Part shown: one piece after another, positions 25,884 to 43,109 of the stretch
Layout of the letters: each line of letters opens with the position of its first letter
Position numbering within the stretch: the first letter of the stretch is position 1
Source: Burkholderiales bacterium
GTDB taxonomy: Bacteria > Pseudomonadota > Gammaproteobacteria > Burkholderiales > SG8-41
Assembly (NCBI GenBank): GCA_019751125.1
Contig: JAIENU010000011.1
Coordinates: 291-64,290 of the forward strand
Length of the DNA: 64,000 bases
Direction of reading: 5' to 3'
Made by a program: the position numbers and the translations under genes
The notes under the pieces: model-generated
What the model was told of the DNA's origin: nothing
Databases searched by the model: none
Seen by the model: the letters and a program-made list of their open reading frames with translations, nothing else

Positions 25884-26161
25884 AGGCAAAGCGTTACGAG
25901 AGTGTCTGGGATGCCATCGAGGCAACGCCGCAAGCCGCGGCGAGCATGCGTGCCCGCTCAGCATTGATGATCGAAATTTCGGAACACATTCAACGCTCGG
26001 GCTGGACCCAGCGCGAAGCAGCAAAAATGCTGGGGGTGACTCAGCCCCGCATTTCTGACCTGGTGCGGGGACGTATCGAGTTGTTTTCCCTGGATATGCT
26101 GGTCGACATGGCTGCGGCCGTCGGACTGAAGCCCAGGATCAGCTTCAAGCGCGCGGCCTGA
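25880..26161 (+). CDS. XRE-family HTH antitoxin (HigA-like)
   Basis: 93 aa. WTQREAAKMLGVTQPRISDLVRGRIELFSLDMLVDM is the typical HTH_XRE antitoxin partner of Gp49-like toxins. Confidence 0.8.
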   Translation: MKAKRYESVWDAIEATPQAAASMRARSALMIEISEHIQRSGWTQREAAKMLGVTQPRISDLVRGRIELFSLDMLVDMAAAVGLKPRISFKRAA

Positions 26162-26181
26162 GCGTCTGGCTCGATGGACGC

Positions 26182-26247
26182 CGCGAGTGTAATCCGCTGC
26201 GCCACCTTGACCGCGCGATCGGGCAGATGCTGGCGCATCAGGGATAG
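26182..26247 (+). pseudogene. Orphan duplicate of the 3' end of the VWA/CoxE-like gene
   Basis: 66 bp align with 25438-25503 with about 8 mismatches. They still encode ECNPLRHLDRAIGQMLAHQG-stop, against ECNSLRHLDRAIGQMLAQQG-stop in the intact gene. Confidence 0.8.
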
Positions 26248-26271
26248 CTGCTGGTCGGCAGGAAGTTGCCC

Positions 26272-26649
26272 TCAGGCCCACCGCCGGATCAGCGGGCGCA
26301 CCTTCAGGAACAAGCGGTAGGCGCATTCGAGCAGCCAGGCGATGCCCGGCCACTGCGCGATGCGCCCGAACATCGGCCACGGCGCCGGCAACTCCTGCCA
26401 CAGCGCCGCGAACGCCCGTGCACCGCTTTCCATACGGCCCGCGGCAGTGCGCACATGAAAACGCGCCAGCAGATCGCTCTGGCACAGGCCATCCGGGCAG
26501 GCGGCTTCCTGCGCCACGTCGTGCCAGTGCACGCGCTGCGCGCGGTCGAGCCGCCGGTAGAAGGCGATCTCGCGCCGGCACAGCGGACAGGCGCCGTCGT
26601 AGAACACGGTCATGCGCGGGTCGGCCGGCGCGGCTGGGGTTTCAGTCAT
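26272..26649 (-). CDS. Thiol-disulfide oxidoreductase DCC family protein (DUF393)
   Basis: VFYDGACPLCRREIAFYRRLD CxxC motif at the N-terminus, 125 aa. Confidence 0.85.
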   Translation of the reverse strand: MTETPAAPADPRMTVFYDGACPLCRREIAFYRRLDRAQRVHWHDVAQEAACPDGLCQSDLLARFHVRTAAGRMESGARAFAALWQELPAPWPMFGRIAQWPGIAWLLECAYRLFLKVRPLIRRWA

Positions 26650-26732
26650 GGTCCCGAGTCTAAGGCTCAGCGGTCACGCGCGGCGGGACCACGCCGGCTG
26701 ACCCGGGCTTGTTCGTGCTTACTTGGGCTTAT

Positions 26733-27716
26733 TCACTCGGGCTGGTAACCCGAAATCTTCACCATCTCCGCGAAGCGCTTGTATTCCGACTCCATGAACG
26801 CGGTGAAGGCCTTGGCGCTGTCGCCGACCGGGGCGAGGCGCAGGTTGTCGAGCTGCTCGACCACGCGCGGCACTTTCAGTGCCTTGGCGAATTCAGCGTT
26901 CAGCTGGTCGGCGATCTTTGCCGGCAGTTTCGCCGGGCCGAACACGCCATACCAGCTCATGTTGTCCATTGTCGCACCGGGAGCGCCGGCTTCGGCAATG
27001 GTCGGCACCTCGGGCATGAAGGGCGCGCGCTTGGGGCCGGTGTAGGCCAGTGCGCGCACGCGCTTGGCTTCGATATGCGGCATACCCAGCGGTGTCGTCA
27101 CAAACATCACCTGCACTTCACCGGCGACCAGCGCCGCCATCGCCGGGCCCGCGCCCTTGTACGGCACATGCACCATGCGCGTGCCGGTGCGCGCGTTGAA
27201 GAGTTCACCCGCCAGGTGCAGCGTGTTGCCGGGGCCGGCCGAGCCGAAGGCGAGTTTCGAGGCCGGGTTGCGGCCCAGCGCGATCAGCTCCTGCACCGTG
27301 TTCGCCGCAACCCTGGGATGCACCGCCAGGAAATAACCGCCGCCGGTGGCGACATTGGTGATCGGCGTGAAATCGCGCCGTGTGTCGAAGGGCAGTTTTT
27401 TCTGGGTAAAGGGATTGGTGGCGAAGGAGGCCGAGGTCAGCAGCAGCGTGTAGCCGTCCGGTGAACTCTTGGCAACCAGGTCCGCGCCGATGATGCCGTT
27501 GGCGCCGGGGCGGTTGTCCACCACCAGCTGCTGGCCGATCTGCGCCGACACCTGCGCGCCCACCAGCCGCGCCACCGTATCCGGCGCGCCGGGGCCGAAG
27601 CCGACGATCACGCGGATCGGGCGCACGGGGTAGCTGGCGGACTGCGCAAGGGCCAGCGCGGGCATGCAGGCGCAGAGTGTGGCCAATCCGATGGCGAATG
27701 TGCGGCAAGTCAACAT
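26733..27716 (-). CDS. Bug/TctC-family substrate-binding protein
   Basis: Signal peptide [24 protein letters not shown] followed by [20 protein letters not shown]. Start set at ATG 27716. Confidence 0.9.
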
Positions 27717-27744
27717 GTTGTCCTCAGTATTCCAGTATTGGTGG

Positions 27745-28395
27745 TTAGCGTTCTGCACCGTCGAGCGCGCGGGTAACCAGATCCACGCATTCATCAAAGC
27801 TGCGTCGATAGTCCAGCACTTCAAGTGCCTCGAAATCTTCCTGCAACCTTGGGCGATGAGCGGCTATGCGGTCCAGTATGGCTGTGCGCCGGTCATGCAG
27901 GATCGGCCTGATTTCGGCCAATGCCTGCGGCTCTTTCTCCAGCACCATCGCCAGATCAAAGATATCCCGCGCGGTGAATTGCTCGCCGCGATGCCACACC
28001 TTCTTTGCCACGATCTCGGCGGAAGTTTCCACGGCCACCACGCGGCCGAGAAGCTGTTCGGTGCGCGTGGGTTGCTGGGTCAGCGGTCCGGATGCCACAA
28101 AATCAATTTCGCCTTCCGGGAAATACAGCTTCACAAACCCGGACTGCTCGATGTAATGCGTGGTCAGTGATTCGGCGACATCACTCAGGCGCGGACTCAG
28201 AAAACCCAGGCACTGGGGGTCGTTGACAAAAATGTCGATGTCCTTGCTGAACCGATGATGATGCCGGCGCATCAACACAGTGCCGCCACCAAAGCTCCAC
28301 TCGCCCAGCGAGCCACCCGCGGCACTGACCGAATCGATCAGCACCAGTGCCCGACGGAACAGGGTTTCCCAGGCGTTCAGGCGCTCGTCAGCCAT
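27745..28395 (-). CDS. Nucleotidyltransferase AbiEii/AbiGii-family toxin (type IV TA)
   Basis: 216 aa. [24 protein letters not shown] matches the DUF1814/AbiEii NTase core (GG...S.D.D). Confidence 0.75.
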
Positions 28396-28889
28396 GTATC
28401 AACCTTGCGCACGGGGTTGAGGGTATCGGCAATTTTCACAAGATTTTTTTCCACACGTCCCGGCTTGCTCCATCGGCTGACCGTTTCGACCAAGCCTTTT
28501 AACAGAGCGGGCGATGCCTCGTCGAGCAATGAGCGCAGATGAGGGCGCAGCGCGGCCGGCACCGAGCCGGTGAGCAAGATGCGGATCAGCGCATCCTCGG
28601 ACAGGGGCGTTTTATAGCTGACACTCGCGCTGGAGGCGGCCATGCGAATGAAATCCGGTGATGCGGCACTGCTATCAGGCGCCACAGAATCAGGTACCAG
28701 GGTCAGGGCAAGCCCAACCTCGGCAAGGATGGCGCGCAGCCGCTGCACGCCGAGATCGCCGATCAAGCCGTTCTCCAGCTGGTTCAGCGTGGTGCGCGAG
28801 ACACCGGCAGCCCGGGCCAGCTGGGCCTGGGTGAGGCCCAGATCGTTCCGTGCCTGGCGCAGGCGAAAGCCGATGTCGGGTAAACGCAT
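28377..28889 (-). CDS. XRE-family HTH protein, presumed antitoxin partner of the AbiEii-like toxin
   Basis: N-terminal HTH LRQARNDLGLTQAQLARAAGVSRTTLNQLENG plus a C-terminal domain of about 100 aa with unknown family. 19-nt overlap with the toxin gene. Confidence 0.65.
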   Translation of the reverse strand: MRLPDIGFRLRQARNDLGLTQAQLARAAGVSRTTLNQLENGLIGDLGVQRLRAILAEVGLALTLVPDSVAPDSSAASPDFIRMAASSASVSYKTPLSEDALIRILLTGSVPAALRPHLRSLLDEASPALLKGLVETVSRWSKPGRVEKNLVKIADTLNPVRKVDTWLTSA

Positions 28890-28902
28890 GGGCGGTAGTC
28901 TA

Positions 28903-29011
28903 AATGTTTAATATATTGAACATTATAATAAGATATCGGGATAATTCAAGTAGGTATTCAGAAGGAAGTCGTTCTACTTGACATTCAATATAGAACTATA
29001 GAACTATATTG
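28903..29011. promoter_or_regulatory. AT-rich divergent promoter/operator region
   Basis: Near-palindrome GTTTAATATATTGAAC within aatgtt...aacatt (28903-28924). A second palindrome CAATATAG-n10-CTATATTG (28986-29011) contains a tatagaac tandem. The region lies between divergent genes. Confidence 0.45.
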
Positions 29012-29038
29012 GCGCCATCCATTATTGAGGATCCCGCC

Positions 29039-29458
29039 ATGAGAGCCATCGAAGTCGATTTCGACGTCTTCAAAGCCCTGACCCTGCGCCGCCCGACTGA
29101 AAGCGTGACGGAAAACGACGTGCTGCGCGAACTGCTGGGGCTGTCCCCAGCGCCACGCAGCTCGAATGCCGGCGGCGCGCCCACGGCAATTGCGCCAACC
29201 ATCGATCCAGACAGTTGGCTGAGCAAAGGCGTGCGTTTCCCGGCGGGCACGGAATTTCGAGCCCATTACAAAGGTGAAACCCATCTGGCGCGCGTTGAGA
29301 AGGGGGCGTTAGTCCTGGCAGGCAAGCGCTACGACACACCGTCCGCTGCGGCGATGGCCATCACCGGCAGCCCGGTGAACGGCTGGACTTTCTGGGAGTG
29401 CCGCACCCCGGGACAGACCACATGGCGGATGATCAAAACAATGCGCCCACAAAAATAA
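29039..29458 (+). CDS. Small protein with a SeqA-N-terminal-like domain and a DUF4357-like C-terminus
   Basis: The N-terminus MRAIEVDFDVFKALTLRRPTESVTENDVLRELLGL recalls the SeqA N-terminal pattern (IEVDDELY...GESASDILRRML). The C-terminus TPSAAAMAITGSPVNGWTFWE recalls the DUF4357 motif (SPSAAA...NG...W). Start set at ATG 29039; the ORF-track TTG is at 29009. Confidence 0.5.
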   Translation: MRAIEVDFDVFKALTLRRPTESVTENDVLRELLGLSPAPRSSNAGGAPTAIAPTIDPDSWLSKGVRFPAGTEFRAHYKGETHLARVEKGALVLAGKRYDTPSAAAMAITGSPVNGWTFWECRTPGQTTWRMIKTMRPQK

Positions 29459-29530
29459 GCGATCACTGCAATATACGAATCCGGCCAGGTCGGCGCACCA
29501 CCTGATCAGCAGTTACACACAAGGAAAAAA

Positions 29531-30448
29531 ATGAAAGCCGTTTACTTCATGCAAAACGGAGGCCCCGAAGTCCTGCAATACGGCGAGCAGCCCGACCCCG
29601 TAGCCGGCGACGGGCAGGTGGTGGTGGACATCCACGCCGCGAGTGTCAACGGCGCCGACTGGAAAACCCGCTCGGGCTACCACGCCCCCACCAAAAAATT
29701 CCCGCACATCCCCGGGCGCGATTTCTCCGGCGTGATCAGCGCCATCGGGCGCGGTGTGACCGAGTTCAAGATCGGCGATGAAGTCTTCGGCGTGGTGCAT
29801 AGCAGCGACGAACGCTGTTATGCCGAGAAGGTGGCGATCGACGCCGCCATCATCACCAAAAAGCCCGCGCAGTTGAGCCACATCGAAGCGGCGGCGCTGG
29901 GACTGGTCGGACTCACCGCGATTGTCTCGATAGAAAACGCGCTGCAGGTCAAAGCCGGACAGACCGTGCTGGTGCAGGGCGGGGCGGGCGGTGTGGCGAG
30001 TTTTGGCATGCAACTCGCCAAACACCTCGGCGCTCGGGTGATCACCACCTGCAGTGCGGCGAACATTGACTATGTGAAAAGTCTCGGCGCCGACCAGGTG
30101 ATCGATTACAACAAGGAAGATTTCACCAAGGTGCTGAAAGACTGCGACGCCGTGTTCGACACCGTGGGCGGCGAAGTCGCAAAAAACGCCTTCAAGGTGC
30201 TCAAGCGCGGTGGCCGCGCTGCCTTCATCAACGGCCCGGCGCCGACACCGCCTTATGGGGACATGGCCTCGCTCAAGCCCGACGCTACGCGCAAGCGCGC
30301 GCACCTGGATCGCATCGTGCAGCTGGTGACTTCAGGCGCGGTGAAGCTGCCGCAGATCACCACCTATGCGCTGGCGGATGCGCAGGCGGCGCATCGGGTG
30401 AGTGAGGGACGGCATTTGCGGGGGAAGTTGGTGTTCAAAGTGCGGTAA
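29531..30448 (+). CDS. NADPH:quinone oxidoreductase-like, medium-chain (zinc-type ADH superfamily) reductase
   Basis: 305 aa. Contains VVVDIHAASVNGADWKTRSG and a VLVQGGAGGVASFGMQLAK cofactor-binding motif. Confidence 0.85.
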   Translation: MKAVYFMQNGGPEVLQYGEQPDPVAGDGQVVVDIHAASVNGADWKTRSGYHAPTKKFPHIPGRDFSGVISAIGRGVTEFKIGDEVFGVVHSSDERCYAEKVAIDAAIITKKPAQLSHIEAAALGLVGLTAIVSIENALQVKAGQTVLVQGGAGGVASFGMQLAKHLGARVITTCSAANIDYVKSLGADQVIDYNKEDFTKVLKDCDAVFDTVGGEVAKNAFKVLKRGGRAAFINGPAPTPPYGDMASLKPDATRKRAHLDRIVQLVTSGAVKLPQITTYALADAQAAHRVSEGRHLRGKLVFKVR

Positions 30449-30471
30449 TTTACGAAGCGCCAATTGATCTT

Positions 30472-30506
30472 TGTAAAACCAGTTGTTTTTGTTTTGATTA
30501 TTTTCA
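30472..30506 (-). repeat. AT-rich intergenic element (core AAAAACAA), divergent copy d, just upstream of hsdM
   Basis: The reverse complement reads tgaaaataatcaaaacAAAAACAActggttttaca. The core ttgttttt is at 30483-30490. Confidence 0.4.
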
Positions 30507-30518
30507 GGAAATGGGTTC

Positions 30519-33026
30519 ATGCCGTTAACTCTGCCTCAGCTCGAACGCCATCTTTTCAAGGCCGCTGACATATTGCGCGGCAAGATGGATGCCTCGGAGT
30601 TCAAGGAATACATCTTCGGGATGCTGTTCCTGAAGCGTTGTTCGGATGTCTATGAGCAACGGCGAGAAGAAATCATCAAGCAGGAGATGGATGCAGGCAA
30701 GAGCAAGGCGGAAGCCGAGCAGTCCGCCGAGAATCCGCGTTTTTACAAGATCGACGGTTATTTCTGGATGCCGGAGCGATCGCGTTACAAATATCTGCTG
30801 AACGAAGCGCACCAGAACGTTGGCGACACGCTGAACAAGGCGTTGGCCGGCGTCGAGTCATCCAACCTGAGCATGTCGGATGTGCTGGCACATATCGACT
30901 TCACCCGCCGCGTCGGGCAAAGCAAGATACCGGACATCAAGCTGCGCCAGCTCATCACCCATTTTGCGACTTACCGGCTGCGCAATGAGGACTTCGAGTT
31001 CCCGGACCTGCTGGGTGCGGCCTACGAATACCTGATTGGTGAATTTGCCGACTCCGCCGGCAAAAAGGGCGGTGAGTTCTACACGCCTCGATCGGTGGTG
31101 CGCATGATGGTGCGTTTACTCAAGCCCGAGCAGCAGCACGATATTTACGATCCCTGCTGCGGTTCCGGCGGCATGCTGATCGCAGCTAAGGAATTCATCG
31201 ACGAGCATGGCGGCACCGGACGCAATGCCAAGCTGTTCGGGCAGGAATTCAACGGAACCGTGTGGTCCATCGCCAAGATGAACATGTTGCTGCACGGCAT
31301 CAGCAGCGCCAGCCTGGAGAACGAGGATACGCTGGCCGATCCGCGCCACGTCGAAGGTGGTGAACTCAAACGCTTTGACCGCGTGCTGACCAATCCGCCG
31401 TTTTCCATCAACTGGGGCAACACTGAAAAGAACAACGACGGTACGCCGGCATGGGCGCCGAAGTTCCCGGAGCGTTTCAAATACGGCCAGGTGCCGCTGG
31501 GCGCCAAGAAAGCCGACCTCATGTTTCTGCAACACATGCTGGCGGTCACGCGAGATGGCGGCATGGTGGCGACAGTCATGCCGCACGGTGTGCTGTTCCG
31601 CGGCGGCGAGGAGCGCACCATCCGTGCCGGCATCATCGACGCCGACCTGCTGGAGGCCGTGATCGGCGTCGCGCCGAATCTGTTTTACGGCACCGGCATC
31701 CCCGCTTGCATCCTCGTGCTGCGTCAGCAGGTGCAGCACGGCGCCAACCGCGTCAGCGGCAAACCCGCTGCACGGCAGGGCAAGGTTCTGTTCATCAATG
31801 CGGACCGCGAATATTTCGAGGGCCGGGCGCAGAACTACCTGCTGCCCGAGCACATCGAGAAAATCGTCACTACCTTCGACGAATTCCGGGCGGTGCCCGG
31901 CTTTTCGGCCATTGTGGATCTTGCCAAGCTCAAGGCCAACGACTACAACCTCAACATCCGCCGCTATGCCGACAATGCCCCGCCGCCGGAGCCGCACGAC
32001 GTGCGGGCTCATCTGGTCGGCGGCGTGCCCAAGGCCGAAGTCGAGGCGAAAGCAGTGCTGTTCAAGGCGCACGGTCTCAACCCGCCGGACCTGTTCGTCG
32101 AGCGCGATACCAAGTACTTTGATTTTGCCCCTGCATTGCAGCAGCGCCAGCACCTCAAGCCCGCCATCGAAACCAACGCCGGGCTGGTGGCGAAAGAGGC
32201 GGCGATCCGGGACGCCTTCGAGCAGTGGTGGCAGGCGCACAGCGCCCGCATCACCGCGCTGTCCGGGCAGACCGACAACGTGGCGGGGCTCGTCGCCCTG
32301 CGCAACGAACTGCTGGCCAGTTTCAGTGAGACACTGGAAGCCGTCGGCATGCTCGATCCCATCCAGGTGCGCGGCATCGTTGCAGGTTTCTGGTATCAGA
32401 CCAAATACGAATTCTTGACCCTGATGGCGCGCGGCGCAAAAGGCGTGGCCGATGCCTGGCGCACCAGCATCGTCACCGCGCTGGAGGACAGAGCCAGCAA
32501 GGAAAGCCCGCTGGAGCACAAGCTGGTCAAGTTTCTGATGGGGGATTTTGTCGAGGTCATCAACGAACTGGAGGCGAAAAAGGCGGAACTCGACAGCCAG
32601 ATCAAGGCCGCCAGCCCGAAGGGCGACGATGAGGACAGCGGTGAGGGGGAGGGGGAGGGGGAGGGGGGCGCGGAAGAAGGGGATGACGACAACGTGGTGG
32701 ACGAGGCGCAGCTCAAAGCCTGGAAGAAGGAGCTGACCGCAGTCAAAAAACAGCTCAAGGCCAAGATGGACAGTTTCTCGGAGCATCTCAACCGCGAGGT
32801 CGATGGGCTCACGCCCGAAGCTGCCGCCGAATTGCTGCTCACTATCCTGCACAACGACATGCGGGCCATACTGGAACGCTATATCGCCGCACAGCGCAAA
32901 GACATTGTCGCGGCCTTCGAGAACTGGTGGGACAAATATCGAGTGACGTTGGCCGAGATTGAGGGTGAGCGGGATGCGGCGGCGCAGGCGCTGCAAGGGT
33001 TCTTGAAAGGGTTGAGGTATGTCTGA
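30519..33026 (+). CDS. hsdM: Type I restriction-modification system methyltransferase subunit M (long form, 835 aa)
   Basis: HsdM_N-like start [36 protein letters not shown] motif [10 protein letters not shown] and catalytic NPPF. A C-terminal extension of about 330 aa includes the acidic low-complexity tract [23 protein letters not shown]. Confidence 0.95.
32645..32668 (+). repeat. G5-A-G5-A-G5-A-G6 tract, (GAGGGG)n hexanucleotide repeat and canonical G-quadruplex motif inside hsdM
   Basis: Read directly: ggggg a ggggg a ggggg a gggggg on the coding strand. It is in frame and encodes the (EG)n part of the acidic linker. Confidence 0.9.
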
Positions 33027-34344
33027 GCGTTGGCAAACCGACCGCCTCGGTAAGTATTGCTACATCAAAGCGCGGATCGGATGGCGCGGACTTTCGGCGT
33101 CTGAATACACAGAGTCAGGGCCCTTCTTGATCGCAGGAAAGCATATCGAAAGTGGCGTGATTGACTGGAACGCTTGTGATCATATCTCTGAATTCCGGTA
33201 TCGCGAGTCTTCGGAAATTGCGCTCGCGGAGGGCGATGTAATCATCACAAAAGATGGCACCATTGGGCGTGTTGCTCGAATTGATTGCCTTCCTGGAAAA
33301 GCGACGATTAATGGAACGATGATGCTCATTCGACCTGAGCGGGGCATCCATTATGGTTACCTTTATCATGTTCTGAATGGCGCTGAATTCAAGAAACTAA
33401 TCGAGGACAAGGTGTCTGGGAGCTCGATTCCGCACATCTTTCAGCGGGACATGGTTGCCTTGCCAATCTCGTTTCCGCCAATTGAACATCAGGCGAAGTT
33501 GGCCCAAGTTCTCGATACCCTCGACACCGCCATCCACGAAACCGAGGCGATCATCGCCAAGCTCAAGGCCGTCAAGCAGGGGCTGCTGCAAAACCTGCTG
33601 ACGCGCGGCATCGACGCCAACGGCGAATTGCGCCCGCCCCAATCCGAAGCGCCGCAACTCTACAAGGAATCGCCTTTGGGGTGGATACCGAAGGAGTGGG
33701 ATTTTTCGTCTTTAACCAGCCTAGGAACTGATGGATTAAATAACGGTGTGTTCAAAGAACCTCGGCGTGTTGGTTCCGGTATTGCATTGGTCAACGTTGC
33801 TGACCTATATAGGGGCGATAGTGTCAGCTTGGATGATTGTGAACGCTTCGCCGCCACAGATGCAGAGCGCTCGCGTTACTCGGCAAGGCAGGGTGATATT
33901 TTCTTCACGCGTAGTTCGTTGAAGCTGGAGGGAATAGCTCAGACAAGTTTTCTAGCGGTCGAAACTGACTCGGCAGTCTTCGAGTGCCACGTCATGCGCC
34001 TTCGCCCAAACAGAGTAAAAGTGGTGCCACGCTTTCTCAAAGAATGGTGCGTTGGTATCCATGCGAGAAAGCACTTCATGGCCCAGGCGAAGCAAGTAAC
34101 TATGACAACGATTTCCCAAGATGGAATTGCTAGCCTTGACTGCCCAAGGCCGCCGCTTAAGGAGCAGCTCGAAGCGGTGCGCAGAATGGAGTCGGTCGAT
34201 AGTAGGCTAAACGCGGAGGTGTTGACCGCGAAGAAGTTGAGTGCGGAGAAGCGGGCGTTAATGGATGATCTACTTACTGGCCGCGTCCGCGTCACTCCTC
34301 TGCTGGCGCAGGCTGCTCGATCCGGGGAAACAGCGAGCGCCTGA
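33019..34344 (+). CDS. hsdS: Type I restriction-modification system specificity subunit S
   Basis: 441 aa. Two lower-GC target-recognition regions are separated by conserved helical spacers ([22 protein letters not shown]; [21 protein letters not shown]). 8-nt overlap with hsdM and 1-nt overlap with hsdR. Confidence 0.9.
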
Positions 34345-37300
34345 TGGGCTGGGAACTCGAAGACGTTGAAAAGCCCTTCATCGCACAATTGCACATGATG
34401 GGCTGGACGCATGTCGAGGGCGACATCGACGATCCGGCGGTCACATCCCGTTCGAGTTTTTCTGAAGTCATCCAGGAGCCGGTGCTGCGCGAGCGGCTGC
34501 GTGCGCTGAACCCTGGACCGGACGGCAAACCCTGGCTCGACGATGCTCGCCTCTCGGAAGCCATTTCCGCGCTCACCCGGCTGGGCCGCCACAAGCTGAT
34601 GGAGGCCAACGAAAAGGCCACGGAGCTGCTGGTGAAGGGCATCACGGTCGAGGGCCTGCCGGGCTGGGATGGCGGGCGCGGGCAGACCATCCGCTACATT
34701 GACTGGGATCATCCTGAAAGCAACCGCTACACAGTGGTCAACCAGTACCGGGTGGATTGCCTACCGGGATTCAATAGTGCCAAGCAGTTCATCGTGCCCG
34801 ATCTGGTGCTGCTGGTGAACGGCATCCCGCTGGTGGTGGTGGAGTGCAAAAGCCCGTCCATCCCGGAGCCACTGGCGGATGCGGTGGATCAACTGCGTCG
34901 CTACAGCAACCAGCGCAAGGCGGCCTTCGAGGTCGAGGACAACGAAGGCAACGAGCCGTTATTTGCCACCAACCAGTTGCTGATTGCCACCAGCTACGAC
35001 GAGGCGCGCGTGGGCTGCGTGGGTGCGGCGTTCGAGCATTACGCGCAGTGGAAGACGGTAGCCGGGGTGGATGGTGCGGGCGCGGAGTCCGAGGTGGCGC
35101 AGGCACTGGGAAGGGACGGCCTGTCGGAGCAGGAGCGGCTGATTGCTGGGATGCTGAGGCCTTCACAACTACTTGATTTAATTAAATATTTTGTCTTGTT
35201 CCTGCAGAAAGACGGGCAAGCCATCAAGACGGTGTGCCGTTACCAGCAATACCGGGCGGTGAACCGGGCGATTGAACGGCTGAAAACCGGCAAGACCCGC
35301 GCGCAGCACGGCGAGCACGACGAGCGCGGCGGCATCATCTGGCACACCCAGGGTTCGGGTAAGTCGCTGACCATGGTATTTCTGGTGCGCAAGATGCGCG
35401 CCGATCCGCAGCTGCGGCGCTTCAAGGTGATCGTGGTCACCGACCGCAAGGACCTGCAGCGCCAGTTGTCGGTGACGGCCACGCTGACCGGCGAGACGGT
35501 GGAAGTGGCCGACAGCAGCCGTGGTATTCGCGTGCTGGCGCGGCAGCAACGGCCGGGGCTGGTGTTCGCGACGATCCAGAAATACCGCGATACCGATACT
35601 GCGGCTGAGGCAGCACCGGCAGCGGAGGGGCAGAAGAAACTCCTCAAAGCCGCCGAACCCGCCAAGCCGTACAAGGCGGGCGAGCTCTACGAGGTGCTCA
35701 ACGATTCCGAGGATATCCTCGTGCTGGTGGACGAGGCGCACCGCACGCAGGCGGGCGATCTGCACGCGAGTCTGCTTGCCGGATTACCTAACTGCGCCCG
35801 TATCGGCTTTACTGGCACGCCGATCATCATGGGCGAGAAAAAGCGTACCCATGAGATTTTCGGGGAGTTCATCGACCGCTACACCATCCGCCAGTCGGAG
35901 GAGGACGGCGCGACGGTGCCAGTACTCTACGAGGGGCGCACGGCGCACGGCGCGGTCAAGGACGGCGGCAGCCTCGACGAGCTGTTCGAGGACCTGTTCC
36001 GCCAGCACAGTGCCGAGGAACTGGAGGCGATCCGCAAAAAATACGCAACCAAGGGCCATATTTTCGATGCGCCGGCGCTGATTGCGGATAAGGCACGCGA
36101 CATCTTGCGCCATTATGTGACCAACATCCTGCCCAATGGCTACAAGGCGCAGGTGGTGGCGTATAGCCGGCTGGCGGCGATACGCTATTTCGAGTCGCTG
36201 CTGGCTGCGCGCGACGAACTGCTGGCGGAAGCCGAGGCCCTGACGCCTGCGGACAAGATGCTCGACGACGAGGCGCTGTGCCAGCGCCCGCCCAAAGTGC
36301 AGGCGGTGATCCAGGCCTGGCGCTACCGGGATACGCTGGCGAAGATCCAGTTCGCGCCGATCATCTCGGGTAGTAACAACGATGATCCGGCGTGGAAACC
36401 GTGGACGGACGGCCACGCACAAGAACAACTGATCAAGCGCTTCAAGAAGCCACTGTCGCATGCGCAGCCTGATAAAAGCGATCCACTGGCATTCCTGGTG
36501 GTGAAGTCGATGCTGCTGACGGGTTTTGATGCACCGATTGCCGGCGTGATGTACCTCGATCGGCCGATCCGTGAGGCGGAGCTGCTGCAGGCTATCGCGC
36601 GGGTGAACCGCACGGGCTACGGCAAACGCTGCGGCATCGTGGTGGATTATTACGGAGTGGCGCAGCACCTCAAGGAGGCGCTGTCTGCCTATGCGGACGA
36701 GGATGTCGAGGGCGCGCTGGCCAGCCTGAAGGACGAGATTCCGGTGTTGCGTGACCGGCATCTGCGGGTGGTGGATCTGTTCCGGCGTTCGGGGATCGAC
36801 AGCCTGCAGGATACCGAGGCCTGTGTGGAGCTGCTGGGCAATGAAAAGCTGCGTGCCGAGTTTTCGGTCAAGCTGAAGGCATTTTTGGCATCACTGGATA
36901 CGGTGTTGCCGCGTCCCGAAGGGCTGCCGTTTTCTGGCGATGCCAAACGGCTGGCCTATATCTATGCTCGAGCGCGGAACCGTTACAAGGATACGCCGGT
37001 GCTGGGCAAGGATGTTGGTGCCAAGGTGCGCAAGCTAATCGACGACCATGTGATTTCTCTGGGCGTTGATCCCAAGATTCCGCCCATTCAGCTGATGGAT
37101 GCCGATTTTGATGAGCATTTGGGGCGGTCAGCCAACAATCGCGCCAAGGCTTCGGAGATGGAACACGCAATCCGCGCACATATCCGCAAGCATGTGGACG
37201 AGGACCCGGTGCTGTATCGCAAGCTGTCGGAGCGCCTGAACGACATCCTGCGTTCGATGGACGAGCAATGGGATGATGTGATCGCGCAGTTGCAGCAGTT

Positions 37301-37670
37301 GATTGACGAACTGCGTTCCGGACAAGTCGGCGACGGGTCTGCGCCGCAGGATTTGCCCGGACACTGCGCGCCGTTTTTGAGGACGGTGCTGGATGTGACC
37401 CATGCGGGCGGCAAACCCTCGCCGCAGGAGTTGTTGCACTTGAAAGATGTCACTATGGAACTGGTCGATCTGCTGGTTCAGGAATTGCAGGGCAATCCCG
37501 ATATCTGGAAACCCTACAAGCGCGCCGATCAGGAAAATCTCAATGGCCGTCTGTTTGATTACCTGATGCGCCTGCGGCCTCCGCTGGTGGATGCCGACAA
37601 AGCGGGCCAGTTGGCGGATCGGCTGATTGATCAGGCGCGTGCCAATCACGAGATGCTGGTGAACGTATGA
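34344..37670 (+). CDS. hsdR: Type I restriction endonuclease subunit R
   Basis: 1108 aa. N-terminal nuclease region (PDLVLLVNGIPLVVVECKSP, a PD-ExK motif) and SF2 helicase motifs (HTQGSGKSLTM, LVLVDEAHRTQ, FTGTP, QAIARVNR). Confidence 0.95.
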   Translation: MGWELEDVEKPFIAQLHMMGWTHVEGDIDDPAVTSRSSFSEVIQEPVLRERLRALNPGPDGKPWLDDARLSEAISALTRLGRHKLMEANEKATELLVKGITVEGLPGWDGGRGQTIRYIDWDHPESNRYTVVNQYRVDCLPGFNSAKQFIVPDLVLLVNGIPLVVVECKSPSIPEPLADAVDQLRRYSNQRKAAFEVEDNEGNEPLFATNQLLIATSYDEARVGCVGAAFEHYAQWKTVAGVDGAGAESEVAQALGRDGLSEQERLIAGMLRPSQLLDLIKYFVLFLQKDGQAIKTVCRYQQYRAVNRAIERLKTGKTRAQHGEHDERGGIIWHTQGSGKSLTMVFLVRKMRADPQLRRFKVIVVTDRKDLQRQLSVTATLTGETVEVADSSRGIRVLARQQRPGLVFATIQKYRDTDTAAEAAPAAEGQKKLLKAAEPAKPYKAGELYEVLNDSEDILVLVDEAHRTQAGDLHASLLAGLPNCARIGFTGTPIIMGEKKRTHEIFGEFIDRYTIRQSEEDGATVPVLYEGRTAHGAVKDGGSLDELFEDLFRQHSAEELEAIRKKYATKGHIFDAPALIADKARDILRHYVTNILPNGYKAQVVAYSRLAAIRYFESLLAARDELLAEAEALTPADKMLDDEALCQRPPKVQAVIQAWRYRDTLAKIQFAPIISGSNNDDPAWKPWTDGHAQEQLIKRFKKPLSHAQPDKSDPLAFLVVKSMLLTGFDAPIAGVMYLDRPIREAELLQAIARVNRTGYGKRCGIVVDYYGVAQHLKEALSAYADEDVEGALASLKDEIPVLRDRHLRVVDLFRRSGIDSLQDTEACVELLGNEKLRAEFSVKLKAFLASLDTVLPRPEGLPFSGDAKRLAYIYARARNRYKDTPVLGKDVGAKVRKLIDDHVISLGVDPKIPPIQLMDADFDEHLGRSANNRAKASEMEHAIRAHIRKHVDEDPVLYRKLSERLNDILRSMDEQWDDVIAQLQQLIDELRSGQVGDGSAPQDLPGHCAPFLRTVLDVTHAGGKPSPQELLHLKDVTMELVDLLVQELQGNPDIWKPYKRADQENLNGRLFDYLMRLRPPLVDADKAGQLADRLIDQARANHEMLVNV

Positions 37671-38404
37671 CGGGTCAAGTAGCGGCGGCTACCGTCGATG
37701 CTCGTGCGAAGCCTGGACTGGTGGTTGATGATATTTCGTTAAAACTGATTCGCAGTCCGCGACGCAAGACGATGCAAATTACTGTTGAGCGAAACGGTGA
37801 GCTGTCGATCTCCGCGCCGCCCGGTGTTCACCTCGACAAACTCCGGCAATTCGTGCGCGAGAAGCGATTCTGGATTTACACCAAGCTGGCGGAGAAAGAG
37901 CGTCTGCGCCGTGCGATACCTCGCAAGGAATTTATTGATGGCGAGGGGTTTTTATTCCTGGGCCGCAGCTATCGGCTGAAGCTGGTGGGCAAGCAGGAAC
38001 TGCCGTTGAAGTTGCTGAACGGTCGATTTTTGCTACGCAGGGATTCTGTGTCCGATGCACGCGCGCATTTCGTGCGTTGGTACAGCAACCGCGCGAAGCG
38101 CTGGCTCAGTGATCGTGTCGATGCATATTCAGGGCGCATGTCGGTCGAGCCTTCTGGTGTCAGGGTGCAGGATCTGTCCTATCGCTGGGGATCGTGCGGT
38201 AAAGATAAGTCATTGTTTTTTAATTGGAAAACGATACTCCTTCCTCCGCGCGTTGCGGAGTATGTGGTGGTGCATGAACTGGCGCATTTACACGAGCCGC
38301 ACCATACGCCTGAGTTCTGGTTGCACCTTGAAAGAGCAATGCCGGATTTCATGCAGCGCAAGGTTTGGTTGGCGGAGCATGGGGTTGATGTAGAGGGAAT
38401 TTAA
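37667..38404 (+). CDS. DUF45/YgjP-like (M48-related, WLM/SprT-like) zinc metallopeptidase
   Basis: 245 aa. HEXXH motif in VVVHELAHLHEPHHTPEFW. ATGA translational coupling to hsdR. Confidence 0.8.
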   Translation: MTGQVAAATVDARAKPGLVVDDISLKLIRSPRRKTMQITVERNGELSISAPPGVHLDKLRQFVREKRFWIYTKLAEKERLRRAIPRKEFIDGEGFLFLGRSYRLKLVGKQELPLKLLNGRFLLRRDSVSDARAHFVRWYSNRAKRWLSDRVDAYSGRMSVEPSGVRVQDLSYRWGSCGKDKSLFFNWKTILLPPRVAEYVVVHELAHLHEPHHTPEFWLHLERAMPDFMQRKVWLAEHGVDVEGI

Positions 38405-38422
38405 GTCGATTGACATTTATGT

Positions 38423-38439
38423 TTGGCATTTGATGCCAA
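38423..38439. promoter_or_regulatory. Palindrome TTGGCAT-ttg-ATGCCAA upstream of the AT-rich operon, with a consensus TTGACA at 38410-38415
   Basis: Read directly from the sequence. I found no convincing -10 hexamer at correct spacing, so a promoter or operator role is speculative. Confidence 0.3.
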
Positions 38440-38516
38440 TCACGGACGTTTCCGGGTGGCTACTTGATTAAGAGCCTTGTATTCAAGTGATGTGTGCTTG
38501 GGCTTGAGGGGGGCGG

Positions 38517-39395
38517 ATGCGATTTTGGTTAGTTAAAGATGATGCGCCAAGTGTCTCGTTTGTTAGGGGCCAGGAAGTTATTACGGTGCATATGAAGCGA
38601 AAGCTCGGCATGGTTAAGGGTGATCGTTTGCTGGTTCTATCAGCAGTAAACGAGAAATACCAATTTGCTGAGACTGCGAAGATAGAGAGCGTTTTTTTTG
38701 AAAATTTAGAAGATGATGGAGTAATTTCAATAATAGGTCTGTCTGAAACAAAAAAGCTGGATGATTTATTGCTCGATGACATGCTTTATAGCCTCACCTT
38801 TGTTTGGAACACTCAATTGCCGGCGCGGCATTTTCGTCGTGGTGTGCGTTTGGTTCCTGAGGCGGACTTTAATGCGATCGTCAATGGCTCAGTTTTCTTG
38901 TCGCGATCAGCTTACTTCACAATCTTAGGCGCATTGCCCGAAATGACCCGAGCTGAGTTTGAGGCAACTGAAATAGTCGGTGAGGCTCAATTTTTAGAGA
39001 CTGGCGGGATTAATGCGGAACATTTGCGTGCAAGAAGGAGGTATGAGTCGAAGCTAAGAAGGTTGCAGAAATATATTGATGAACAAATTATTTCAGTCGG
39101 GATTGAATTGGAAAAGTTGCAGCGGATTGCGGATGAATTGAAGGGCGATGGTTCATTGCAGTCGGTGCGACATAGTTTTTTTGATCAGGATTCAACTCAG
39201 AGGTATCGCTGGGATTATCAGATCGAAGCATTCAGCGGATTAATGAATAACCTTGAAGGAGTCCGGGTGCTTGATCGATTGCAGGAAATTTCAGAGAAGG
39301 GGGCGGTGTCGGAGGTCTTGAAATATCTGGAGAATGATGACGATGCAAGAGGCTCTGAAGAATCGTTTGAAAAAATGTTCGACGAGGTGCGGTAA
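38517..39395 (+). CDS. Hypothetical protein A (292 aa) of the AT-rich two-gene operon; family not recognised
   Basis: Strong SD gagggggg 3 nt before the ATG. The beta-rich N-terminal ~100 aa (MRFWLVKDD...VKGDRLLVLSAVNEKYQFAETAKIESVFF) is weakly reminiscent of PUA-like (ASCH/EVE) modules. The C-terminal half is helical and acidic. No P-loop. Confidence 0.7.
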   Translation: MRFWLVKDDAPSVSFVRGQEVITVHMKRKLGMVKGDRLLVLSAVNEKYQFAETAKIESVFFENLEDDGVISIIGLSETKKLDDLLLDDMLYSLTFVWNTQLPARHFRRGVRLVPEADFNAIVNGSVFLSRSAYFTILGALPEMTRAEFEATEIVGEAQFLETGGINAEHLRARRRYESKLRRLQKYIDEQIISVGIELEKLQRIADELKGDGSLQSVRHSFFDQDSTQRYRWDYQIEAFSGLMNNLEGVRVLDRLQEISEKGAVSEVLKYLENDDDARGSEESFEKMFDEVR

Positions 39396-40093
39396 TGTCG
39401 AAAAAAGAAATGCTCCGAGGAATTAAGGCCTATGCTGATGCTTTGGCAAGGGCGGGGAGGTGGGGTGGGCAATCAGCGAGGCCGGTTAATCTCAAGAATG
39501 ACTACTATGTTTATGAGCTCCTATGTTTTTTTAAAATTGCGTCTGAGGTAAAAAGTAAGTTTATTGTTGAATTGTCTGGCAATTATGAGAAAAAAATTGG
39601 TGGGGTTCGCGGAGGGGGTGGCTCCATCGAAATGCATGCGCTTTGGCCAATGGGGCCGGCAAATAAGTCTAACTTTTCTTTTTTTTGTTTGACTGAAAAG
39701 TCAGATCAAAATTTTATTTATCAGCTTTGTCCGGGCACTAATGTTGAAGATATGCATGGCAAATTAAGGGCTCCAGATATTAGTCTTCAAAAGGGTGATG
39801 CCCCAATGAATCCGACGTTTAACGATGTAATCGCTTGTTGGGATGCAAAGCATTCAATTCACGTAGGTAATACGTTACCTGATACCGCCGTTTCTGATTT
39901 TGCCTATACCGTTGCTCAATTTGGAAAGCCAGTGCCGCCTGCAAAGTGGACGTCTTTAGTTAAGCTCCCTGCGTTGCGTTGCTCGGGGCTGTTAACAAAT
40001 GGTGAGTGGTCGACTGAGCCTGATGCCGCCCTTGCTGCGGCTGGCATAGCGGAGACAAAAAATTTCCCCGATGAACCTTTAACTCGGCCTTAA
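39395..40093 (+). CDS. Hypothetical protein B (232 aa), putative PD-(D/E)xK-fold nuclease
   Basis: TAATG overlap with gene A. Candidate catalytic elements are E41 (YVYELLCFF), P127-D128 (LRAPDISL) and D150-A151-K152 (VIACWDAKH), with plausible spacing. No named family recognised. Confidence 0.65.
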   Translation: MSKKEMLRGIKAYADALARAGRWGGQSARPVNLKNDYYVYELLCFFKIASEVKSKFIVELSGNYEKKIGGVRGGGGSIEMHALWPMGPANKSNFSFFCLTEKSDQNFIYQLCPGTNVEDMHGKLRAPDISLQKGDAPMNPTFNDVIACWDAKHSIHVGNTLPDTAVSDFAYTVAQFGKPVPPAKWTSLVKLPALRCSGLLTNGEWSTEPDAALAAAGIAETKNFPDEPLTRP

Positions 40094-40169
40094 TCTTCAC
40101 TGCCATCAGGGCGCGACTGCGTCGCGCGGGTCAAAGGCGGACCGGTGGGTGACGCCTTCGGCTTACCCA

Positions 40170-40351
40170 CCCTACGAGCTGGATAACCTGGTGCGCATCG
40201 GCCAGTTGAAGGCCCAGCCGCGCACCGCCAGCGCAATCTGGCGGAATACGAGGGTTTTTGGCAGGTGGAAGAATCCGCCATCGCGGAACTTTCGGCGCTG
40301 GTGGAGTATCTGATTTCCGACGTGGACCGCTTGATCAAGGGCGTGAATTGA
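40170..40351 (+). pseudogene. Possible decayed gene remnant at the right edge of the defence island
   Basis: Two adjacent frames read PYELDNLVRIGQLKAQPRTAS... and ...AEYEGFWQVEESAIAELSALVEYLISDVDRLIKGVN-stop. There is no start codon and an apparent frameshift. Composition is high-GC, unlike the neighbouring cassette. Confidence 0.3.
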
Positions 40352-40466
40352 TCACGCCGGCGGGCATTTGTCTCAGGTGATCCAGTAAGCCCAGGCCAAG
40401 CTGCAGTAATATCCTGTCCCACACTATTCTGTGTTGAATAATTCGACTAAAAACTGAGGAGAAAAC

Positions 40467-41432
40467 ATGCGTGTCCGAATTTCGGTATTGACGAGCCTGG
40501 CGGCCTTGATCGCGCTGCCGGCGGTGGCCCAGAACTATCCGGTGAAGCCGATCCGTATCCTGATCGCGCAGGCGCCGGGCAGCGCCACGGACAACGTCAG
40601 CCGCATCATGACCAGCAAGCTCGCCGAGCAGATGGGCCAGCAGTTCGTGATCGAGGCGCGGCCGGGTGCCGGCGGCGCGGTGGGCACCGAGGCGGCGGCG
40701 CGTTCGCCGGCCGACGGCTACACCTTGTTCATGGCCAACAACTCCACGCACGGCTCGAATCCCGCGGTCTACAAAAAGCTGCCCTACGATGCGATCAAGG
40801 ATTTTGCGCCGATCATCCACATCGCTTCCACGCCCTATGTGCTGACCGCGCATCCCTCGCTGCCGGTGAAGACGGTGAAGGAACTGGTGGCTTTCGCCAA
40901 AAAACGGCCGGGTGATCTCAACTACGGCTCCGCCGGCAACGGCAGCACCCACCACCTCAGCGGCGAGCTGCTCAATATGATGGCCGGCATCAAGCTCGTG
41001 CATGTGCCGTACAAGGGCACCACGCCGGCGCTGACCGGGCTGTTGAGCGGCGAGGTGTCGGCGATGTTCTTCACCGTGGTCGGCATCGAGCCCCACGCCA
41101 AGAGCGGCCGGGCGCGGGCGCTGGCGGTGACCACGCCCAAGCGTGCGGCGCTGCTGCCCGATGTGCCGACGATGATCGAATCCGGCTATCCCGGGTTTGA
41201 GGTCACCTCGTGGTTCGGCCTGCTCGCGCCGGCTAACACGCCGGCGGCCATCGTCAGCCGCGTCAACGCCGAGTCGCAGAAAGCCCTGGCGCTGCCCGAG
41301 GTCGCGGGTGCCCTGAAGAAAATCGGTTTCGACGCCGTGGGCGGCACGCCCGAGCAGTTCGCGTCGCATATCCGCGCCGAGGTCGAGCGCTTCACCAAGC
41401 TGGTCAAGGCCACCGGCATCACGGTGGATTGA
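40467..41432 (+). CDS. Bug/TctC-family substrate-binding protein
   Basis: Signal peptide followed by NYPVKPIRILIAQAPGSATD. SD gaggag lies before ATG 40467. Confidence 0.9.
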   Translation: MRVRISVLTSLAALIALPAVAQNYPVKPIRILIAQAPGSATDNVSRIMTSKLAEQMGQQFVIEARPGAGGAVGTEAAARSPADGYTLFMANNSTHGSNPAVYKKLPYDAIKDFAPIIHIASTPYVLTAHPSLPVKTVKELVAFAKKRPGDLNYGSAGNGSTHHLSGELLNMMAGIKLVHVPYKGTTPALTGLLSGEVSAMFFTVVGIEPHAKSGRARALAVTTPKRAALLPDVPTMIESGYPGFEVTSWFGLLAPANTPAAIVSRVNAESQKALALPEVAGALKKIGFDAVGGTPEQFASHIRAEVERFTKLVKATGITVD

Positions 41433-41633
41433 GCCGGGGCGGGCGGCCGGGCCCTGGGCCTGGTCGCCCCGCAGTCCGGCCAGCCCTGGAAGTGCGGGGC
41501 TCTGGGGTAAAAACCCCAATAGATTGAACCACTTACTTGCGGTACCACTACTAAAGGTGTAACTTCCCGTTCTAACCCCTAGATCGGGAGCGACATCGTT
41601 AGTCCCATCCTGACTGTTTTCGGATCATTCGCT

Positions 41634-42269
41634 GTGCTGTTGCTGGCCTCCCTGCCGGCAGCTGCGGTGCCCTTTGCACCGCCCGGTTTTGAAGCCCTGC
41701 ACCTGGCCGTGGCTCAGGTGTCGTCGTCCGAATCCTCCCGCACTGAAGCCGTTCAGACTGCTGCAGTTCAAGTCACATTCCCCGCGCCCGAACAGCCGCG
41801 CCTGGCGCGGCCCGCGGTTGTTCCGGTCGCCACTGAAGCGCCGCGCCCGCGCAGCACTGGCACGCCGCGCGCGGCCGACCTCGCCCAGCAACTGCATCGC
41901 CTCGAAGAACAGATCGCCTCAGGCAACAAGGTGATTGCCGACATGCTCGACCGCGTGGCGCTGATGGAGCGCGAGGTCGCCGAGATGCGCGCCCGCGTGC
42001 AGTCGCTGCCCGGTGTGGGTGGTGCGGCGGCGCCGCGTCCAGCCGGGGCGGTGGTGCCGCAGGCCGCGGTGCGCGAGCAGCCCACCGCCGAGCTGGATAC
42101 CGCTGAACGCTCCAGGCGCAACCAGATGATCATCGACAACGCTCTCCTGCTGCTTGCTGCCGGCGTGCTGCTGCTGCTGATCGGCGTGGCCTACTGGACC
42201 TGGGGCCGCCCGGCCCTGAAGGACCGGCTGCGCGAAGTACGTGCGTCACGCACGGCGCCTGCGGCCTGA
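41634..42269 (+). CDS. Hypothetical membrane-anchored coiled-coil protein
   Basis: Hydrophobic N-terminus, a coiled-coil-like segment (LAQQLHRLEEQIASGNKVIADMLDRVALMEREVAEMRARV), and a C-terminal TM (ALLLLAAGVLLLLIGVAYW). GTG start is uncertain because the frame is open from 41583. Confidence 0.45.
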   Translation: MLLLASLPAAAVPFAPPGFEALHLAVAQVSSSESSRTEAVQTAAVQVTFPAPEQPRLARPAVVPVATEAPRPRSTGTPRAADLAQQLHRLEEQIASGNKVIADMLDRVALMEREVAEMRARVQSLPGVGGAAAPRPAGAVVPQAAVREQPTAELDTAERSRRNQMIIDNALLLLAAGVLLLLIGVAYWTWGRPALKDRLREVRASRTAPAA

Positions 42270-42355
42270 TTGCCCTGATTCTGCATCACCGGACCAAGCA
42301 CGGCGGTACGCAGGCCAAGGGCAAGCCCAATGACCGCGCTCAATGACCATGATCA

Positions 42356-43096: not shown

Positions 43097-43109
43097 CGCA
43101 GGGATTACA

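Follow-up and report, generated by a model that had tools for sequence, protein, structure and literature searches.

A probable defence hotspot of two variable slots between conserved Bug genes in an uncultured freshwater Burkholderiales species

How did about 12.6 kb of defence genes come to lie between two genes for Bug-type binding proteins with no recognisable mobility gene beside them? The question is raised by positions 27745-40351 of a 64,000-nucleotide stretch of contig JAIENU010000011.1 (assembly GCA_019751125.1, Burkholderiales bacterium, SG8-41 lineage). The whole stretch is called the window here. A preliminary description had read this segment as a single composite defence island, assembled stepwise, whose mode of acquisition was not evident. 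Comparison with relatives suggests a different arrangement. The locus is probably a defence hotspot between chromosomal core genes of an uncultured freshwater Burkholderiales species, and the alleles of its two slots are probably exchanged by homologous recombination. The source material is metagenome assemblies throughout, including all relatives, which are numbered with G or L for genomes and contigs. Genes were called from an open reading frame (ORF) listing and from Pfam, PADLOC, and NCBIfam family searches of the window. These reproduced the gene content listed in the preliminary description.

Three genes anchor the locus: BugL, the MDR oxidoreductase gene (MDR), and BugR. The DNA between them is replaceable. 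BugL orthologues, with 77-86% nucleotide identity, are found across 16 genomes of the genus, and BugR orthologues are present in 11. MDR orthologues (85-90% nucleotide identity) adjoin BugL in 10 lineages. The order BugL-MDR-BugR is collinear in G003, G019, G009, and contig L133. In G003 and G019, BugL and BugR lie on one contig with MDR (85-87% nucleotide identity) between them, and order and orientation are unchanged. The position of MDR between the Bug genes is kept in every relative examined. Because MDR is collinear with BugL and BugR in the relatives, it is regarded here as an anchor, and the supposed single island becomes two independent variable slots. Slot A lies between BugL and MDR, and slot B between MDR and BugR.

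The edges of the slots were placed by alignment to L133. This 264-kb contig is from a near-conspecific strain and is 97-100% identical to the window over most of the right flank. Similarity is lost about 33 nucleotides inside the 5' end of BugL and is regained 13 bp before the MDR ATG. It is lost again at the MDR stop codon and regained at 40106, which sets the right edge at 40105/40106. Slot A of L133 is an unrelated 265-bp spacer, and its slot B is filled by 5.2 kb of different genes. In both slots the difference from L133 is one of replacement rather than of simple insertion. The segment was earlier taken to be accessory rather than core, and this stands: L133 has the spacer and different genes, and the hsd cassette and the pair unkA-unkB described below were found in no other species of the genus.

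All 12 MDR 3' ends that were aligned lose similarity exactly at the stop codon. Similarity likewise ends at the MDR stop codon in five further metagenome contigs. The slot B cargo beyond this point differs in almost every one of 13 lineages and barely overlaps between them. By Pfam and PADLOC it is mainly defence, with restriction-modification (R-M) systems of types I and IV among others. Four other type I R-M systems are present (23-41% HsdM identity, tblastn at the locus), together with Dnd, Hachiman (HamA plus helicase), Mrr, GmrSD, HNH plus NERD-UvrD helicase, and a RES-domain protein. The toxin-antitoxin (TA) pairs are of the PemK, AbiE, and MNT kinds. The NERD-UvrD helicase and the MNT pairs recur in several alleles, and non-defence genes (a hydrolase, an F420-type oxidoreductase) occur in a few (G019, L133).

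The right edge of slot B falls at a double hairpin that folds with −38.4 kcal/mol (z −1.97). The hairpin is present once in the genome and has no Rfam family, and its reading as a dispersed repetitive extragenic palindrome (REP) or other portable homology was rejected on these grounds. Between the hairpin and BugR lies the stretch that the preliminary description had listed as a frameshifted gene remnant within the island. A real gene remnant it is, but it is resident rather than acquired, and the same gene is intact in L133. The gene belongs to an MNT (nucleotidyltransferase) TA pair as the partner of the MNT gene, which has been deleted; the partner itself has lost about 238 internal bp between GCCGCGCA microhomologies. 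By these alignments, positions 40106-40351 are ancestral, the new cargo ends at about 40105, and a resident MNT-type TA pair beside BugR has decayed. A reading of 40170-40351 as an att-like repeat, duplicated from the MDR 3' end or from a Bug 5' end, was rejected, as there is no similarity to either.

The composition of the locus is mosaic, as first described, with discontinuities in both the GC and the tetranucleotide profile. The whole genome has a GC content of 63.2%, and the flanks of the locus about 0.66. Values are 0.535 for hsdS, 0.543 for the DUF45 gene, and 0.44-0.45 for the pair unkA-unkB. By tetranucleotide distance, the hsdS region is at the 97th percentile of 2-kb windows of the genome, and 37-41 kb is at the 98th to 99.7th percentile. 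The TA/RAMA block, hsdM, and hsdR are within the normal host range.

The features of the locus and the slot B content of the relatives are collected in Table 1.

Table 1. Features of the locus, with positions in the window, and slot B content of the relatives
Feature	Position	Strand	Description
HigB (Gp49-like)/HigA (HTH_37) TA cassette	25557-26161	+	Pfam; left of BugL; third small variable slot
BugL	26733-27716	-	TctC-family periplasmic binding protein; Pfam E 2.6e-66; left anchor
Slot A	~27684-29517		BugL 5' end to MDR ribosome-binding site; junction alignments and synteny; holds XRE/AbiEii and the RAMA-like gene
AbiEii-like nucleotidyltransferase	27745-28395	-	Putative toxin; PF08843, E 5.8e-17, 62.8 bits against a cut-off of 22.5
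XRE-type helix-turn-helix (HTH) protein	28377-28889	-	170 amino acids (aa); putative antitoxin/repressor; HTH_3 E 4.3e-13
RAMA/DUF2924/DUF4357-like small protein	29039-29458 (ORF opens 29009)	+	139 aa from ATG; weak Pfam matches, all below curated cut-offs
MDR NADPH:quinone oxidoreductase	29531-30448	+	Pfam and NCBIfam; core anchor separating slots A and B
Slot B cargo of this strain type	30449-40105		9.66 kb; replaces 5.2 kb of other genes in L133
hsdM	30519-33026	+	835 aa, long-form type I methyltransferase; PADLOC MTase_I full length, 1472 bits
hsdS	33019-34344	+	Specificity subunit; Methylase_S PF01420 in two stretches = two target-recognition regions
hsdR	34344-37670	+	1108-aa restriction/translocase subunit; TIGR00348 417 bits, above the 284.55 cut-off
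YgjP-like (DUF45) metallopeptidase	37667-38404	+	PF01863 E 6.8e-57; ATGA overlap with hsdR, translationally coupled
unkA	38517-39395	+	292 aa; GC 0.44; PUA-like (ASCH/YTH/Lon-N-like) N-terminal beta-barrel, then helical region
unkB	39395-40093	+	232 aa; GC 0.45; putative PD-(D/E)xK nuclease
Double-hairpin element	40106-40174	+	Common to L133 and G003; right edge of replaceable segment; single copy in genome
MNT-partner relic	40175-40351	+	Decayed 139-aa partner gene; aligned to intact pair at L133 8894-9881; matching pieces in G003
BugR	40467-41432	+	TctC-family binding protein; Pfam E 1.7e-77; right anchor
G003 slot B			PLD-helicase, DndBCDE, NucS-like, AbiEi/Eii, MNT, Fic, IS110
G005 slot B			Mrr and NERD-UvrD helicase
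G007 slot B			SMC-like ATPase
G009 slot B			HNH and NERD-UvrD helicase
G011 slot B			Inverted hsd-DUF45 cassette, ~40% identical
G019 slot B			MNT pair, second MDR 3' fragment, another type I R-M, GmrSD, 1542-aa NOV_C protein, NERD-UvrD helicase
G020 slot B			Third type I R-M and RES-domain protein
G023 slot B			EcoEI-type HsdR and Hachiman
L133 slot B			HNH, NERD-UvrD helicase, PemK pair, F420-type oxidoreductase, intact MNT gene and 139-aa partner
L134 slot B			Dam-like methylase and HerA-like ATPase

The Hachiman-type pair of G023 is located at L030 (G023:C15) 13176-16690, behind the type I R-M, and consists of HamA (E 3e-47) and a DEAD-box helicase.

The mode of exchange was approached through close strains. 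The island is unchanged (98.7-100% identity), in the same context, in 23 contigs read; 10 of these, drawn from several freshwater metagenome studies, were compared here. The window and strain L039/L139 are nearly identical over the 14.6 kb from 25886 to 40486, where only 3 positions differ. To the left of this block they diverge by 0.45%, and from 40487 on by 2.4-10%. The strain-to-strain breakpoint at 40487 lies 20 nucleotides inside BugR. Over the right flank, the window, L039, and L133 are mosaics of 90-100% identity. Between the two island types, identity is about 95% in DCC1, BugL, and MDR and rises to 97-100% farther out.

G019 contains a second, foreign copy of the MDR 3' end. This copy is 363 bp long, is 88% identical to the resident MDR and 90-92% identical to other species, and is located at L022 (G019:C1) ~8111-8521 (g19 28111-28521), 1.2 kb downstream of the resident MDR. 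The interval between the two MDR copies holds an MNT TA pair, and the duplicate is followed immediately by a type I R-M operon. A single crossover with DNA from a different lineage would be expected to leave such a scar. Contig L137 was considered as the donor of the G019 type I R-M, with an MDR 3' end that is 95% identical to the duplicate, and was rejected because its downstream DNA does not match.

Searches for mobility functions were empty in the window, as the preliminary description had reported for integrase, transposase, tRNA, and terminal repeats. The 64-kb window has no tRNA, the ORFs of the island have no transposase or recombinase domains, and no repeat pairs bracket either slot or the whole segment in this genome. 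No tyrosine recombinase (PF00589) was found on this contig, or at the locus in 8 genomes. The whole assembly, which is 94% complete, has two tyrosine recombinases only, both Xer-like. The sole mobility gene seen across 13 alleles is one IS110 (G003).

These patterns suggest that cassettes are exchanged by homologous recombination through the anchors, a model that has been put forward both for the E. coli immigration control region and for the Pseudomonas core defence hotspots. DNA taken up by transformation, transduction, or conjugation would cross over with the resident chromosome in the conserved genes on either side, and whole slot alleles would pass in this way between strains and species. 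Exchange of this kind would leave no integrase, no attachment (att) sites, and no target duplication. The first entry of a foreign cassette into the genus would be an illegitimate or one-sided event, and G019 may carry the scar of such an event. The mode of acquisition is then no longer wholly obscure: homologous recombination in the flanks is indicated by the breakpoints and by the comparison of strains.

Several points weigh against this reading. The recombination is deduced from sequence patterns, and the contigs that show them are metagenome assemblies, in which chimeras can occur. The block of 14.6 kb might be identical because the divergent right flank, and not the island, was imported. 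Breaks of similarity at the borders of coding sequences are expected under any mechanism once the intergenic DNA has diverged. The first entry of the hsd cassette and of the low-GC pair is left unexplained by homologous recombination alone. Finally, two cassettes bracketed by duplicated gene 3' ends, HigBA in the window and the MNT pair in G019, also fit a site-specific process.

The HigBA cassette, to the left of BugL, is 744 bp long and is bracketed by a 62-nucleotide duplication (92%) of the 3' end of the upstream VWA (CoxE-like) gene, at 25438-25499 and 26182-26243. L133 has a different 540-bp insert at the same place, 26172-26224.

An AT-rich motif of about 30 nucleotides, AAAAWWATCAATAAAAACAATGGCTTAT, has 126 copies in the genome, compared with 1 for the reversed-sequence control. 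The copies are mostly intergenic, and three are in the window (22028, 50833, 62809). In the relatives the motif is found in empty slot A, right after the MDR stop codon (G005, G023, G019), and upstream of MNT genes. Its reading as a promoter was rejected, as neither orientation is preferred and 25 of the copies are flanked by the ends of convergent genes.

Other explanations can be set against exchange through the anchors. The locus could be the decayed remainder of a site-specific integrative element that targets the MDR 3' end, with a recombinase that acts in trans or has been lost (a cis-mobilisable or Xer-dependent element). Such an element would account for the start of every slot B allele at the MDR stop codon. 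It would also account for the G019 MNT pair between MDR and the 363-bp copy of its 3' end, and for HigBA between two 62-nucleotide copies of the VWA gene 3' end. The two Xer-like recombinases, the only tyrosine recombinases in the genome, and the recurrence of the AT-rich motif at several junctions in relatives speak for it as well. The account is nevertheless judged unlikely. Neither slot has repeats at its edges in this genome, 8 genomes have no recombinase in or near the locus, and L133 shows replacement, with 265 bp and 5.2 kb that have no counterpart here. The G019 duplication is long and 12% diverged, as would suit one homologous crossover with foreign DNA more than an att site, and the AT-rich motif is spread genome-wide without orientation bias. 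A dedicated route into core-gene 3' ends that needs no integrase, not described so far, might instead be guided by host Xer or by repeats. It could be marked by the start of slot B at the MDR stop codon, by the diverged 3'-end duplications, and by the motif at junctions, and it is considered improbable.

Vertical inheritance with differential loss supposes that the genus ancestor had a large defence locus between BugL and BugR, of which lineages have kept different subsets. Under this view, the TA/RAMA genes would be at the same site in four species with near-core divergence, as they are (AbiEii 73-76%, RAMA 75-84%, and BugL 80-83% at the amino acid level). The recurring NERD-UvrD helicase and MNT pairs, and the decay in place of the MNT partner, are also in its favour. 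The cargo, however, scarcely overlaps among the 13 lineages, and the content is wholly different in a strain whose flanks are 97-100% identical. The nearest relatives of the hsd cassette are in other genera and classes (84% compared with 45% within the genus), and the hsdM relationships already indicate incongruence with the species tree. The unkAB pair is absent from 60 relatives and is compositionally extreme (99.7th percentile). Loss from a rich ancestor is accordingly given little probability. Insertion of one composite 12.6-kb island between the Bug genes, as in the preliminary description, agrees with the defence genes on both sides of MDR, with a GC content below that of the flanks over most of 27.7-40.1 kb, and with the single identical haplotype that the window and L039 share over the whole block. 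Against it, MDR is conserved in place in all relatives, the two sides of MDR differ in species distribution, and the right 250 bp is ancestral. Such an insertion is extremely improbable.

Exchange through the anchors is the preferred reading for the movement of alleles, and the parts of the allele in the window have separate histories. The largest part is the type I R-M cassette, hsdM-hsdS-hsdR-DUF45. HsdM has the domains HsdM_N (PF12161, E 1.5e-30) and N6_Mtase (PF02384, E 2.2e-97), and scores 231 bits against TIGR00497, slightly below the cut-off of 242.75. HsdS matches PADLOC Specificity_I over residues 56-436 (E 1e-72). HsdR has the domains HSDR_N (E 1e-36), SWI2_SNF2 (E 7.5e-72), ResIII, and T1R_D3. 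The operon is complete by gene content and, judged from its families, would methylate self DNA and cut unmodified DNA. Two of the three differences between the window and L039 (32645, 32648) are within an in-frame (GAGGGG)n repeat of hsdM.

The nearest HsdM relatives, with 70-84% amino acid identity, come from 80 loci of other genera of Beta- and Gammaproteobacteria. Their hosts include Aquabacterium, Malikia, Thauera, Lysobacterales, and Pseudomonas. The best match within the genus, by whole-genome search, is 45%. Nucleotide similarity to the foreign hsd loci is confined to 30506-38410. The DUF45 gene directly follows hsdR in 64 of 67 homologous foreign loci, which makes a fixed four-gene unit, and none of the 67 has the unkA-unkB pair, the MDR gene, or the TA genes. 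By these relationships, the cassette from hsdM to DUF45 was acquired from outside the genus. For hsdS, identity to the foreign cassettes is only 30-48%.

The cassette has the same gene order and the same domain sets as the known type I R-M systems with YgjP/DUF45 (long HsdM, PADLOC MTase_I PDLC03031). It is unlike the foreign loci in that the unkA-unkB pair follows only here, and in that hsdS abuts hsdR. Most of the 67 foreign loci (L053-L132) have 1-5 kb of extra DNA between these two genes.

The second part of slot B is the low-GC pair unkA-unkB, which has no family match in Pfam, NCBIfam, or PADLOC. A word-based search found no unkA relatives; these were found only via gene neighbourhoods and a profile search, which gave 302 representative clusters (50% identity) at E<=1e-3. 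A Foldseek search with the unkA model gave ZmASCH at probability 1.0, plus Lon-N and YTH. For unkB, eight distant homologues were found (33-46% identity). In the alignment of 9 homologues, E41, P127-D128, and D150-A-K152 are invariant, an E...PD...DAK signature. The unkB model has a predicted confidence (pLDDT) of 80.7. Each unkB homologue examined is preceded by an unkA homologue with a 4-nucleotide overlap (31-32% identity for unkA, E 2e-23 to 7e-32). The neighbours of these pairs are type III R-M, TA genes, or GmrSD. The unkB gene is present in 1 of 61 related genomes. With its own composition, and beside unrelated defence genes elsewhere, unkAB is, as far as these comparisons go, an acquisition separate from the hsd cassette.

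From the models, unkA is putatively a PUA-like reader of modified bases or nucleic acids, and unkB a candidate PD-(D/E)xK-like nuclease. The pair would be a candidate second nuclease module. It resembles the type IV modification-dependent nucleases, of which MspJI and VcaM4I are among the fold matches, in the PUA-like barrel of unkA, the PD...DxK signature of unkB, and the placement in defence neighbourhoods. It differs from them in that unkA and unkB are separate proteins with no sequence-family match and weak fold matches. Two features of the models speak against these assignments. The unkA model is confident for residues 1-90 only and unreliable beyond residue 90, and the fold matches of unkB are weak (best AF1548, E 5e-3; NucC, E 3e-2; template modelling (TM) scores 0.27-0.36).

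Slot A has yet another history. The XRE and AbiEii reading frames overlap by 19 nucleotides, and the RAMA-like gene is divergent from XRE. Orthologues of all three lie at the same site in G003 and G009, with amino acid identities of 73-76% for AbiEii, 57-67% for XRE, and 75-84% for the RAMA-like protein. Slot A of G011 holds XRE and the RAMA-like gene, and slot A is about 415-860 bp long in G005, G007, and G020. The RAMA-like gene, whose product has a match to PADLOC PDC-S14 (E 3e-8), adjoins MDR in G003, G009, and G011 regardless of the slot B content. Because it accompanies the TA pair whatever slot B holds, it is assigned to slot A and not to the R-M system. By this distribution, the slot A content, the XRE/AbiEii-like pair with the RAMA-like gene, is older and shared within the genus.

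The AbiEii stop codon was measured at 28 bp from the BugL start codon, the distance first reported. This tight junction had been taken as a sign of insertion next to an existing gene. The same arrangement exists in G009, with a gap of 21 bp, so the junction is old and shared and not a fresh insertion scar. Across species, no conserved intergenic junction was found in slot A beyond about 13 bp before the MDR start. A promoter-like TTGAAT-16-TATAAT lies at 28949-28922 on the minus strand, ahead of the XRE-AbiEii operon, and no terminator-like hairpin was seen before BugL. Read-through from this operon into BugL is plausible from these signals.

The pair resembles AbiE type IV TA systems in that the gene for a DNA-binding partner comes first and is overlapped by the downstream gene for an AbiEii-family nucleotidyltransferase. 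The difference is that the partner here is XRE-HTH and not AbiEi (COG5340). No AbiEi antitoxin of the COG5340 type was found upstream of AbiEii, where the gene matches XRE-type HTH families only. The PADLOC AbiEii models match only weakly (E >= 2.5e-4).

Together, at least three acquisitions and one decay event support the stepwise assembly first proposed. The TA/RAMA genes are shared with G003, G009, and G011 and the hsd genes are not, and the four-gene hsd unit elsewhere never occurs with the unkA-unkB pair.

Two observations concern the DNA to the right of BugR. Positions 41200-43200, with a gene of 211 aa and an SBP_bac_11 gene, are only 89-95% identical among three strains that are otherwise 97-100% identical, and form a hypervariable patch. 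In L133, an Mrr_cat restriction gene (20556-20966) is located about 10 kb to the right of BugR, where the alignment to the window breaks (81.7% in the last bin). Its position may be another variable site.

The immigration control region (ICR) of E. coli and other enterics is a variable locus between conserved boundary genes (review PMC12707154, which cites Sibley and Raleigh 2004, PMC373321). Among the cassettes that alternate there are type I hsd systems of several unrelated families and nucleases that depend on modification (PMC12707154). An empty allele exists in some strains, and the ICR has no dedicated mobility genes (PMC12707154). The neighbouring core genes are unusually polymorphic, a "bastion of polymorphism" (PMC12707154). 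The present locus is similar in its conserved flanks, alternative defence cassettes, minimal allele, and lack of dedicated mobility genes. Its neighbours, DCC1, BugL, and MDR, are likewise polymorphic relative to DNA farther out. It differs in its anchors, which are Bug/TctC receptors and MDR instead of yjiA/yjiN, in its host at the phylum level, and in its two adjacent slots split by a core gene. It is known from metagenome assemblies alone.

A second comparison is with the core defence hotspots cDHS1 and cDHS2 of Pseudomonas aeruginosa, which are flanked by core genes, hold diverse defence systems, and differ sharply between close strains (PMC10250203). No mobile gene is detectable in 29% and 47% of these sites, and whole-region transfer by homologous recombination through the conserved flanks was proposed for them (PMC10250203). 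Next to these sites lies a tRNA or tmRNA gene, and transposases, prophages, or conjugative elements are often found inside them (PMC10250203). The core-gene flanks, the diverse defence cargo, and the sharp differences between close strains are shared by the present locus. It differs in that there is no tRNA in the window, one insertion sequence in 13 alleles, and much smaller slots (0.3-23 kb). The organisation, with core-gene anchors and no integrase, is already known from E. coli and Pseudomonas, and what is new is an example in an uncultured freshwater Burkholderiales lineage.

The landmarks of slot B are precise, with the MDR stop codon on the left and the hairpin before BugR on the right, and make it possible to retrieve more cargo from metagenomes. 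The most interesting single component of the locus is the PUA-like/PD-(D/E)xK pair. The few such pairs examined have other defence genes as neighbours, and the module can reasonably be put forward as a candidate new defence system. Judged from the gene families, the allele in the window would provide a layered defence against phages and foreign DNA, with a type I enzyme, a candidate nuclease module, and abortive-infection or addiction modules. Turnover of such alleles takes place within the species, where strains whose flanks are 97-100% identical differ entirely in their defence sets.

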